A DNA stretch of 12,601 nucleotides from a virus (IMGVR_UViG_2606217105_000016:1-12601), one strand, 5' to 3'; shown: positions 3,983 to 5,978, counted from the first letter of the stretch. Made by a program: numbers and translations. The notes: a model not told the origin generated them from the sequence alone.

Positions 3983-4174
3983 TTAAAGACCTGCCGGGAT
4001 TTCGTTATTATCCTGGTGAATAACTTTATCGACCGGGTAACAGTTACCGGGAATTTTCTGTTCGGTTGCTGCAGTCATACATTCCTGCATTGTCCTGTGA
4101 ACACTGACTGCAATATCAACTGGCTCTCCGGAAACAAGATAAACTGTCAGAACAAGCGCAAATGCTGAATTCAT
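3983..4174 (-). CDS. Small hypothetical protein with N-terminal signal-peptide-like hydrophobic segment (~63 aa)
   Basis: ATG at 4174..4172 preceded by AAGGA 8 nt upstream. Begins MNSAFALVLTVYLVSGEPV, which looks like a signal peptide or membrane anchor. Its start overlaps the stop of the upstream ORF in an ATGA arrangement. The ORF track's longer 81-aa version starts further upstream at 4228. Confidence 0.5.
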   Translation of the reverse strand: MNSAFALVLTVYLVSGEPVDIAVSVHRTMQECMTAATEQKIPGNCYPVDKVIHQDNNEIPAGL

Positions 4175-4359
4175 TGTGCACATCCTTTTGGCATCAGACG
4201 TAAACGAGCCAGCATTGAAACAATGCATATTTTATTTAATAGCTCCCGTTCTTGTTTTCTCTTGTTAATGGCATCTTCAGTAAATACTGGGTTACTGATA
4301 GTGACACCAATTTCAAAACAACCTTCAGACGTATTAACGTTTGGTAATAACGTTTCCAT
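4171..4359 (-). CDS. Small hypothetical protein (~62 aa)
   Basis: ATG at 4359..4357 preceded by GAGGA 7 nt upstream. Its TGA stop (4173..4171) overlaps the ATG of the downstream gene, suggesting translational coupling. The ORF track's 97-aa version starts at a GTG at 4464, which is less convincing. Confidence 0.45.
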   Translation of the reverse strand: METLLPNVNTSEGCFEIGVTISNPVFTEDAINKRKQERELLNKICIVSMLARLRLMPKGCAQ

Positions 4360-4917
4360 TATCGCGTCCTCAACAATGAATTTTGTGATGCGGTGCCTGG
4401 TGCCTCCAGGTGACGTTAACCAGTTAACAATTAACGCCGGATACAGAGAACCCACCCATAACACTGTTTTTGGTTTTAACTGTTCCGCGTGCGCTTAGCC
4501 GCATTCACCGCATCACAAAATTCACTTTAAAAAGGGCGGCAGAGCAGTCACGGAGTAAAACTGATACCGCCAAACGCCACCAGAAAATTGATAACAGAGG
4601 GCGTTGCAGCGGGGTTGTCACTTAAGCGTATGGTCAACCTGACAACCCGGTGTCCTCAACGGGGAAGGAATAACCCCGCCATACTTACCGCCGCGCCATT
4701 TCGCGGATTGCCACAACCGGAAGCGCACGGTCGAATTAAATTTAACGACACCGTACAGACAGAATAACTTCGCCGTGCGCTTTCGCGTTATGTCCTGACT
4801 TTTCAGGGATATATCCTTCCAGTAAACTGCCAGTGCCGGATGCTCACCCGTGTCCGGCGCACGCACTCCACCTGACCCGTGGAGAACTCCTTAATTACCA
4901 ACCCTCAGGAGGGTGAA

Positions 4918-5139
4918 ATGACTAGTAAAAATGTAAATATCCAGTTTAACCACGATGTTTCTCCTGCTGGACTTGCGGATGAGCTCACTGCTATAAAAAC
5001 GGCAATTATGCTACTTGCTGCTAAGTTGCCTGCGTCATCAAAGCCAGCGGAAATTTGTGACTCATTGCGTAAGATGAATTCAACAAAATGCAATGAGATG
5101 GCATCACTTATTGAAAGTGCAATTGATTTTAATGATTAA
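4918..5139 (+). CDS. Hypothetical small protein (73 aa)
   Basis: ATG at 4918 preceded by a canonical AGGAGG (4907..4912) with 5-nt spacing. It is the only plus-strand gene in a block of minus-strand genes and overlaps the 3' end of the convergent gene 5129..5503 by 11 bp. Confidence 0.5.
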   Translation: MTSKNVNIQFNHDVSPAGLADELTAIKTAIMLLAAKLPASSKPAEICDSLRKMNSTKCNEMASLIESAIDFND

Positions 5140-5503
5140 TCGAAATTTCATGGCTAACTGTAACACTCCCATCTGTGGCGGGATGGTTTAAATCGCTGGG
5201 ATTAATGCCGCACTCAGTAAAATGGTTCTTAAGGGGTTCTATCCGAATCCCTTTCTTTTTCATTAACAAGCCAAACCCCTTATCAATGATATCCATTAAT
5301 TCCAGGAGGTATTTTTCATGTAAATCCTGGTTATCAGAGAGCTGCTTCTCTTCGTACAGACCGATAAAGGCACGACGCACGTTACCGGATATAGTATCGA
5401 TGGTTTCTTTTTCTACGGTACTCAGGTCAAGAGTCGCCAGTTGGGAACGAACTATATTCGCTGCCATTTCCTGGAATTGCATTGGTAAATCTTTAAATTC
5501 CAT
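5129..5503 (-). CDS. Hypothetical protein (124 aa)
   Basis: ATG at 5503..5501 with GAGG upstream. It is the second gene of the leftward operon downstream of the repressor-flanking operators. No recognisable motifs. Confidence 0.6.
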   Translation of the reverse strand: MEFKDLPMQFQEMAANIVRSQLATLDLSTVEKETIDTISGNVRRAFIGLYEEKQLSDNQDLHEKYLLELMDIIDKGFGLLMKKKGIRIEPLKNHFTECGINPSDLNHPATDGSVTVSHEISINH

Positions 5504-5744: not shown

Positions 5745-5939
5745 ACTGATTCCTCGCGGTGCTGTTTCCCCTTAACGCCGGGGTAGCGGAACAAAAACCT
5801 GCTGCATAGTTATTAAAGTTGAACCCTGCCGTCATGTTCTTACGCCTCGGGCTGGCTACTTAACCCCTGACCACTGCCTGGTAACTCAAAGTATTGCCCT
5901 GCATTCTGTGGGGCGGGGTGGGTTGGTATGAAAAGAAGG

Positions 5940-5978
5940 ATACCCATAGGTATTTAAAAAGTAAATACCCATGGGTAA
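5940..5978. promoter_or_regulatory. OL-like operator pair with a leftward pL-like promoter
   Basis: Two 14-bp palindromic sites 25 bp apart: ATACCCATAGGTAT (5940..5953) and ATACCCATGGGTAA (5965..5978, containing the perfect 12-bp palindrome TACCCATGGGTA). On the minus strand these interleave with a -35-like TTTACT and a -10-like TATCCT, mirroring the OR/pR arrangement. Confidence 0.6.

Follow-up and report, generated by a model that had tools for sequence, protein, structure and literature searches.

A probable dicF precursor segment and the 115-nucleotide RNA domain upstream of DicF in a viral early-left operon

The dicF locus and its surroundings

Positions 4465-4917 of the viral sequence IMGVR_UViG_2606217105_000016:1-12601 (12,601 nucleotides (nt), all of it called the window here, with coordinates counted from its first letter) lie between dicB and a plus-strand gene, and were assigned, on sequence grounds and with high confidence, to the dicF precursor segment of an early-left operon, whose transcript would be processed as in Escherichia coli K-12. 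When the whole window was scanned against Rfam, positions 4534..4585 of the minus strand matched the DicF RNA (RF00039; 76.4 bits against a cut-off of 48, E = 8.5e-16) over the full covariance model (positions 1-52 of 52), and this was the only match above threshold. The 3' intrinsic terminator hairpin and U run by which a DicF RNA is recognized are in place (Table 1). A preliminary description, made from the sequence alone, had suggested a small RNA (sRNA) among other roles for the region and had proposed a covariance-model search, and this suggestion was right; the hairpins that it listed are real, too, although the name, strand and position of DicF, and the single larger fold to which three of the hairpins belong, had escaped it.

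The genomic setting is that of a DicF RNA in the early operon of a prophage, with dicB and ydfD downstream, ydfC and the repressor gene upstream and the integrase gene at the end. In order of transcription, the minus strand carries the repressor gene with a pL-like promoter, ydfC, a gene for 124 amino acids (aa), the region itself, dicB, ydfD, an 823-aa exonuclease gene, xis (excisionase) and int (integrase); by window coordinate, i.e. 3' to 5' along the operon, the same genes run from integrase to repressor, the region being the gap after dicB. Positions 4340..4903 are ~95% identical to the ydfC-dicF-dicB spacer of the K-12 prophage Qin, and the spacing between dicF and dicB is 174 nt in both. 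Shared as well are the order of elements (RNase III hairpin, 115-nt domain, DicF, terminator, 174-nt spacer, dicB) and the strand relation to the repressor. The two differ in one DicF base and in the apex of the first RNase III hairpin, which contains a 3-nt indel; furthermore, the window has the 124-aa gene and a convergent plus-strand 73-aa gene after ydfC, whereas in K-12 ydfC abuts the leader, and the prophage of the window, located next to potC, retains the exonuclease gene, xis and int.

The locus is thus a further copy of one already known since 1989-1990. An identical chromosomal locus, where the prophage adjoins potC, is present in RefSeq, and its records annotate dicB and carry no RNA gene here. 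A 561-nt stretch was matched in 4721 of 5426 complete E. coli genomes (over at least 80% of its length in 3500 of them), at a median of 2 and up to 10 places per matching genome; in E. coli TW10690 and IrN, for example, positions 4400-4960 are matched with 100% identity. The window holds an unannotated copy of a characterized regulator that blocks cell division, rewires metabolism and affects the virulence of enterohemorrhagic E. coli (EHEC). What is modestly new is a covariation-supported model of the 115-nt domain, a part of the 190-nt DicF precursor that seems not to have been described, together with the modular spread of this domain, including phage P1, which makes it a candidate new RNA family.

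Table 1 Elements of the dicF segment and adjacent genes, by window position (helix strands on the minus strand are given 5' to 3').
Feature	Position	Strand	Remarks
dicB	4171..4359	minus	cell-division inhibitor gene, downstream of the DicF terminator; annotated in the identical RefSeq locus
RNase III hairpin 2	4377..4524	minus	dicB 5' untranslated region (UTR); perfect 19-bp stem (4524..4506 with 4395..4377) enclosing 110 nt
DicF	4534..4585	minus	RF00039
DicF intrinsic terminator hairpin	4571..4535	minus	from the model alignment; then five U at 4533..4529
DicF seed	4585..4572	minus	single-stranded 5' region
Linker GCCCUCUGUUAUCAA	4586..4602	minus	single-stranded; ends at the DicF 5' end
115-nt domain	4603..4717	minus	multi-helix, pseudoknotted; between the two putative 5' cuts, upstream of DicF
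P0	4717..4710 / 4610..4603	minus	8 bp; closing helix
P1	4706..4702 / 4695..4691	minus	5 bp
P4	4690..4687 / 4651..4648	minus	4 bp; encloses P2
P2	4678..4674 / 4664..4660	minus	variable hairpin
P3	4647..4640 / 4620..4613	minus	8-9 bp
P3b	4639..4637 / 4627..4625	minus	3-bp extension of P3
Pseudoknot	4684..4679 / 4633..4628	minus	6 bp; GUAUGG in the P4/P2 junction with CCAUAC in the P3 loop
RNase III hairpin 1	4718..4785	minus	arms 4785..4773 and 4730..4718; base extended to about 4793..4711
Distal leader	4786..4903	minus	almost invariant across copies in alignments
Distal leader hairpin GCCGGA/UCCGGC	4858..4853 / 4840..4835	minus	
Distal leader hairpin CUCCAC/GUGGAG	4884..4879 / 4871..4866	minus	
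Inverted repeat GGGTTGTCA/TGACAACCC	4612-4620 / 4640-4648		perfect 9 bp, 19-nt loop
Inverted repeat GGGG-N9-CCCC	4661-4664 / 4674-4677		
Inverted repeat CCGCG-N6-CGCGG	4691-4695 / 4702-4706		
Inverted repeat GCCGGA-N12-TCCGGC	4835-4840 / 4853-4858		
73-aa gene	4918..5139	plus	phrog_7249 (E = 5.8e-46), unknown function; between the ydfC-side genes and the dicF leader
124-aa gene	5129-5503	minus	phrog_6937, unknown function

Within the 52 aligned positions, DicF of the window has a single mismatch to K-12 b1574, G instead of A at position 12 (window position 4574; GGUGGCGUUUGG), where most other copies share the A of K-12. This G12 falls in the 5' seed and makes a possible pairing with AACGCC (4605..4600) stronger.

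The region is GC-rich (0.523, compared with 0.454 in the whole window) and structured, as had been stated. Short-range perfect inverted repeats in 4465-4917 were compared with 500 dinucleotide shuffles: nine were found at k = 7 (shuffle mean 1.7) and six at k = 8 (mean 0.4), numbers that none of the shuffles reached, and three at k = 9 (mean 0.09), reached by 0.6% of the shuffles. All four hairpins named in the preliminary description are present, GCCGGA-N12-TCCGGC lying ~3 nt to the right of where it had been placed (about 4832..4855). Two repeats had gone unnoticed, one with 13-nt arms (4718-4730 / 4773-4785) and a perfect one of 19 bp (4377-4395 / 4506-4524), which reaches across the region's lower boundary, so that just 4465..4524 of the second RNase III hairpin lies inside it. 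The 3' arm of this 19-bp stem ends ~10 nt before the Shine-Dalgarno sequence of dicB. In the first RNase III hairpin, 28 distinct copies show an invariant stem and a hypervariable apex (4772..4731) that includes the indel, and the base is lengthened, in the consensus fold and by minimum free energy (MFE), through pairing of CAUAAC with GUUGUG, the latter being the 5' strand of P0. The spacer between dicF and dicB gives a weak match to STnc100 (RF02076), below its gathering score (38.4 bits compared with 47; 4327..4536, minus strand), and is probably a diverged relative.

Fold and covariation of the 115-nt domain

Three of the four hairpins of the preliminary description, namely P1, P2 and P3, are arms of the 115-nt domain. 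The fold was drawn by eye from an alignment, two helices being added by RNAalifold, and its copies were collected by pattern scans of viral and genome collections (71-72 distinct copies). Covariation was assessed in a model-based alignment of 72 distinct copies that is partly fitted to the structure; a MAFFT alignment was similar. Across these copies, 96.5% of cells pair in the domain, compared with 33-55% when the partners are slid, and changes on both sides are found in 11 pairs, compared with 3.5 in shuffles; on none of five measures did any of 500 shuffles reach the observed value. The comparison of homologous prophages for compensatory base changes that had been proposed as a check thus favors the structure. 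P3, for example, is GGGUUGUCA/UGACAACCC in the window and GGGUAACCA/UGGUUACCC in another copy (L242); the pseudoknot reads GCAUGG/CCAUGC in phage P1 and GUAUGG/CCAUAC in a P1-like element (L209) and elsewhere; most copies have C-G as the innermost pair of P0, where the cdtI type has U-A; and P2 retains a stem while the first pair alternates among G-C, U-A, A-U and C-G and the length differs between copies. The pair 4648/4612 competes, as an alternative, with the last pair of P4. Read on the opposite strand, the G.U pairs of P0 and P3b would become A.C mismatches, and the fold therefore belongs to the minus strand.

The evidence for structure is this comparative covariation and not MFE, the z-scores of which are uninformative; folded in isolation (121 nt), the domain yields P0, P1, P2, P3 and P4 by MFE. 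In the almost invariant distal leader (4786-4903), no compensatory changes were found among 28 copies because the copies are too alike, and the two hairpins there are thereby neither supported nor refuted. The first ~96 nt of this leader are present also in phage phi367.

At E ≤ 10, no Rfam family (riboswitches, ribozymes, 5S and tRNA-like RNAs included) matched 4586..4917, and over 4300..5200 the only matches at this level were DicF, STnc100 and two at chance level. In the literature covered, to which the early dicF papers and the phage P1 genome paper did not belong, no description of the domain was found. Several resemblances were considered and rejected. The closing helix of 8 bp with three arms has the look of a tRNA cloverleaf; ARAGORN reported neither a tRNA nor a transfer-messenger RNA, and the helix sizes do not fit. 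A likeness to a 5S rRNA motif was dropped, as Rfam had no match at E ≤ 10. Pairing of GGCGG, invariant in the domain, with the 3' arm of the terminator appeared in one MFE structure only, and the terminator of phage P1 has no CCGCC.

Some chromosomal copies depart from the fold. In two of them, from Shigella flexneri and E. coli (L196 and L197), the 5' strands of P0 and P1 are replaced by unrelated sequence, and L197 and L214 have GUCUGG in place of GUAUGG in the pseudoknot; L196 and L197 (and L214) are probably decaying.

The domain in other phages and the modules behind it

When phage genomes were searched, the proximal ~120 nt upstream of DicF proved far more widely conserved than the distal part. 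Identity in this stretch is 90% in cdtI, Stx2c phages and Ayreon, 89% in 2H10, 85% in the 'Actinobacillus' phage pPE4, 83% in the Salmonella phage F1055, 82% in P7 and 78% in P1. The pPE4 record is labeled as an Actinobacillus phage, but here it matches E. coli prophage sequence at 85-97% identity. True copies in the genome-contig scan were confined to Enterobacteriaceae (Escherichia, Shigella, Trabulsiella and a few others); one pattern used in that scan, CAGGNTGACCATNCGCNTNAG, was too degenerate, its ~100 matches in unrelated bacteria being those expected by chance.

Behind the domain, at a distance of 30-110 nt, there is a strong intrinsic terminator, which a crude detector recognized in 55 of 59 distinct flanks. 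The four others comprise one contig end, two flanks with long terminator hairpins that the detector missed (L234 and L242), and L196. The sRNA module and terminator behind the domain differ by type: DicF, the cdtI module (GGCGGUACCAG...CUGGUACCGC), and those of pPE4, P1 and several others. The domain thus precedes several different terminator-bearing sRNAs, and in phage P1 it heads the ban operon. In the cdtI and Stx2c phages, it begins ~280 nt past a good pL promoter, and the interval contains no N gene; in pPE4, it comes after a dicA-like repressor gene. In pPE4 (L004 2590-2775), the terminator-bearing sRNA module is a tandem duplicate of two ~88-nt copies.

The match in phage P1 overlaps a feature that the annotation calls the 'dicF-like region', next to the C1-controlled Pban promoters on their downstream side. 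P1 and P7 share with the window the domain (77-82% identity over ~97 nt; P3 and the pseudoknot show compensatory changes) and the intrinsic terminator after it. What is common is, however, the upstream domain and not DicF: the 3' module and terminator of P1 (GCCCAUCUUCGGGUGGGC) are unrelated to DicF. In addition, the closing helix of P1 has another sequence (by MFE prediction only), the canonical P0 sequence being absent from both P1 and pPE4, and the element begins ~25 nt from the Pban transcription start, with no RNase III hairpin ahead of it. From the Pban start to the terminator (L003 2476-2646), a primary transcript of ~180 nt would be made. Between upl and tciA (L003 3842-3869), P1 has 28 nt identical to the dicF-dicB spacer (window 4485-4512), and judged from the sequence its ban leader looks like a cassette of the dicF-dicB type split by insertion of a tRNA and plp/upl.

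The N-bearing phage phiSTEC1589-Stx1c keeps the distal leader, the first RNase III hairpin and a DicF-like sRNA; P1-P3 are precisely absent, and a mini-hairpin, GUUGUG-AAUA-ACAAC, remains (L249 3187-3222).

Processing of the precursor and the role of the domain

In K-12, the dicBF operon is driven by dicBp, whose repressor is DicA. The 190-nt DicF species requires RNase III and the 53-nt species RNase E, and an internal promoter was not found; the 53-nt species ends by Rho-independent termination, and a 72-nt form results from an RNase III cut of read-through RNA. In stationary phase the 190-nt species, which is stable, builds up. DicF represses ftsZ, xylR, pykA and manX, and activates pchA in EHEC. 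The proposal of the preliminary description that the region could be a processing element was borne out to the extent that the homologous K-12 precursor has been shown experimentally to undergo processing by RNase III and by RNase E.

In the window, a step of 190 nt back from the 3' end of DicF (4534) leads to ~4723; hence, the 5' end of the corresponding species would lie in the 3' arm of the first RNase III hairpin, which RNase III would cut near 4723/4722. RNase E would then cut the AU-rich linker at 4586|4585 and release the 53-nt DicF. The junction there, UCAA|UUUU, is the putative cleavage site because of the position of the DicF 5' end and because, in K-12, the 5' end of the 53-nt species depends on RNase E; we take it to fit the RNase E preference RN|WUU. 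The 3' end would be set by DicF's own intrinsic terminator. In read-through RNA, 72 nt from the DicF 5' end reach ~4514, so that the 3' end of the 72-nt form would fall in the 5' arm of the 19-bp stem; this stem fits the published RNase III cut, which would also trim the dicB 5' UTR. We infer the exact positions from the sizes of the species, and the RNase III sites so placed fall in predicted duplexes. dicB and the genes beyond would be expressed by read-through, and DicF would act in trans with Hfq on ftsZ and other mRNAs. Release from a longer mRNA by RNase E and a terminator of its own are features that DicF shares with CpxQ, SroC and SdhX, processed Hfq-dependent sRNAs derived from 3' UTRs; unlike these, it adds an RNase III step and a large conserved structured module upstream.

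Very probably, then, the region is the untranslated dicF segment of the leftward early operon, processed much as in K-12. With P0 closing P1, P4/P2 and P3, the domain would serve in cis as a folding and processing scaffold of the pre-sRNA, compacting ~570 nt of untranslated RNA, keeping the linker and the DicF seed unpaired, and thus available to RNase E and Hfq, and stabilizing the 190-nt form. As the 5' strand of P0 is held in the base of the first RNase III hairpin, full folding of the domain may await the RNase III cut. We infer the scaffold to be the most likely role of the domain, its main rival being control of read-through.

Several observations weigh against this interpretation. The folding energy of the minus strand is unexceptional for a single sequence (the region as a whole has z = −1.54, and its parts range from −1.4 to −1.9), and it is the plus strand, the wrong one, that folds more stably (z = −3.32); the MFE folding of both strands that had been called for therefore reveals marked stability only where it is not relevant. 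Independent covariation events are few because the copies are closely related. The loops and junctions of the domain are near-invariant from lambdoid phages to P1, which exceeds what a passive scaffold needs. A transcript from pL would have to pass the 4918-5139 gene in antisense before it reaches dicF. Finally, phiSTEC1589-Stx1c retains a DicF-like sRNA without P1-P3, and the domain is therefore not required for such an sRNA.

The strongest competitor, which we nevertheless regard as unlikely, is that the domain controls transcription read-through in cis, as a put-like antiterminator, an anti-Rho element or a riboswitch-like attenuator, and decides between a stop at the adjacent sRNA terminator (sRNA only) and continuation into dicB/kil, the recombination genes, xis and int. 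The constant pairing of the domain with a terminator 30-110 nt downstream suits this role, as do its promoter-proximal location in repressor-controlled early operons (~25 nt in P1, ~280 nt in cdtI and Stx2c phages, and pPE4) and its near-invariant loops and junctions, which recall RNAs that bind a ligand or protein; moreover, the one N-bearing phage examined lacks the domain. However, that same phage still has the sRNA, the link with the absence of N rests on very few phages, and in Qin and in the window the domain lies ~1 kb or more from the promoter. As for a lambda-type N gene, the annotation of the identical RefSeq locus shows none from the repressor to dicB, although no formal search for N or boxA/boxB was made, and the small proteins encoded in this interval match only PHROGs of unknown function. 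A conserved antiterminator that pairs with the differing terminators was not found by eye, and the domain resembles neither putL/putR of HK022 nor any riboswitch or other family in Rfam, by sequence or by model.

The put RNAs, cis-acting processive antiterminators, are like the domain in being structured, protein-free RNAs of lambdoid early operons that lie upstream of terminators and, in several phages, close to the promoter; they differ in size and design, put having ~70 nt and two stem-loops and the domain 115 nt, five helices and a pseudoknot. Homology to put was rejected after putL of HK022 had been located and compared directly: blastn (word size 7) against the PL/PR region gave chance-level matches, a shared 9-mer (GCGCGGCGG) is likewise expected by chance, and covariance model R1 found nothing in HK022. 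A structured element upstream of an sRNA terminator is also the arrangement of EutX and Rli55, sRNAs controlled by riboswitches.

A broader version of read-through control, in our estimate equally doubtful, would make the domain an autonomous regulatory RNA module of lambdoid and P1-type phages that senses a host factor or small molecule, or acts on RNA polymerase or Rho, and so sets the ratio of termination to read-through. Such a module would amount to a phage 'sRNA-or-operon' switch with interchangeable sRNA modules behind it, the genes reached by read-through being dicB/kil, recombination genes, xis and int or, in P1, the tRNAs, tciABC and ban. If the domain controls either read-through or processing, this would explain how phages balance the sRNA against the toxic genes behind it.

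It is more doubtful still that the domain, as a ~137-nt 5' fragment left by the RNase E cut or within the 190-nt form, works in trans by binding or titrating a host protein or RNA. The stability of the 190-nt species and its accumulation in stationary phase would agree with such a function, as would the compact pseudoknotted fold with invariant unpaired bases, and a host partner is suggested by the occurrence of the domain in phages as unrelated as the lambdoid and P1/P7 types. Yet, the literature examined yields no sign that the 5' fragment survives the cut, and the strict adjacency to an sRNA terminator would be left unexplained.

That the region is the leader and promoter of the plus-strand gene at 4918, another proposal of the preliminary description, is very improbable in comparison with a dicF segment. 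This gene must have a promoter, and the region borders directly on its ribosome-binding site (GGAGGGTGAAATG, 4908-4920). However, no sigma-70-like site was found on the plus strand of 4465-4917 by scanning, or by inspection of 4780-4917; as far as 4903, the sequence is shared with K-12 and many phages without the gene, the K-12 homology stopping exactly at the ribosome-binding site; and the G.U pairs tie the conserved fold to the minus strand. The 73-aa gene and the 124-aa gene converge with an 11-nt overlap, and K-12 Qin has neither of them between ydfC and the dicF leader. Within the 124-aa gene there is a terminator-like site on the plus strand (5231-5253).

That the region encodes a protein or is a decayed pseudogene, in the form of an 82-aa open reading frame (ORF; 4618..4866, minus strand), can be practically dismissed: although the ORF matches phrog_8854 (E = 3e-31, residues 19-71) and several phage records annotate a 'hypothetical protein' here, the frame is open in only 2 of 44 homologous copies, 38 of which, read from the same start codon, come to a stop after 15 codons, variable columns fall evenly on the codon positions (26/27/27), indels measure 1-5 nt and are not multiples of three (the P2 segment ranging from 29 to 35 nt), a Pfam search gave no matches, and changes compensate in RNA helices. 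The preliminary description had already judged this ORF implausible, and its own pseudogene alternative, which presupposed an intact gene in homologous prophages, fails on the same counts; it erred in calling the ORF the only one, as plus-strand ORFs starting with TTG (4470..4625 and 4588..4767) overlap the region, too. The match to phrog_8854 (window 4621-4866, minus strand) is best explained by automatic ORF calls over the conserved RNA-coding DNA of dicF leaders, so that at least one PHROG 'protein family' appears to have been built over this RNA.

Farther upstream on the minus strand, just past the repressor gene, there are two 12-bp palindromes, TACCCATGGGTA and TACCTATGGGTA (5977-5941), which a scan had called a terminator and which look like operators around a weak pL-type promoter. 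They are followed by a 5' leader of ~190 nt that extends up to ydfC (5745-5977) and has a C-rich start (CCCACCCCGCCCCACAG). This leader, clearly conserved in phage pPE4 (L004 2290-2480), could be another cis-acting RNA element.

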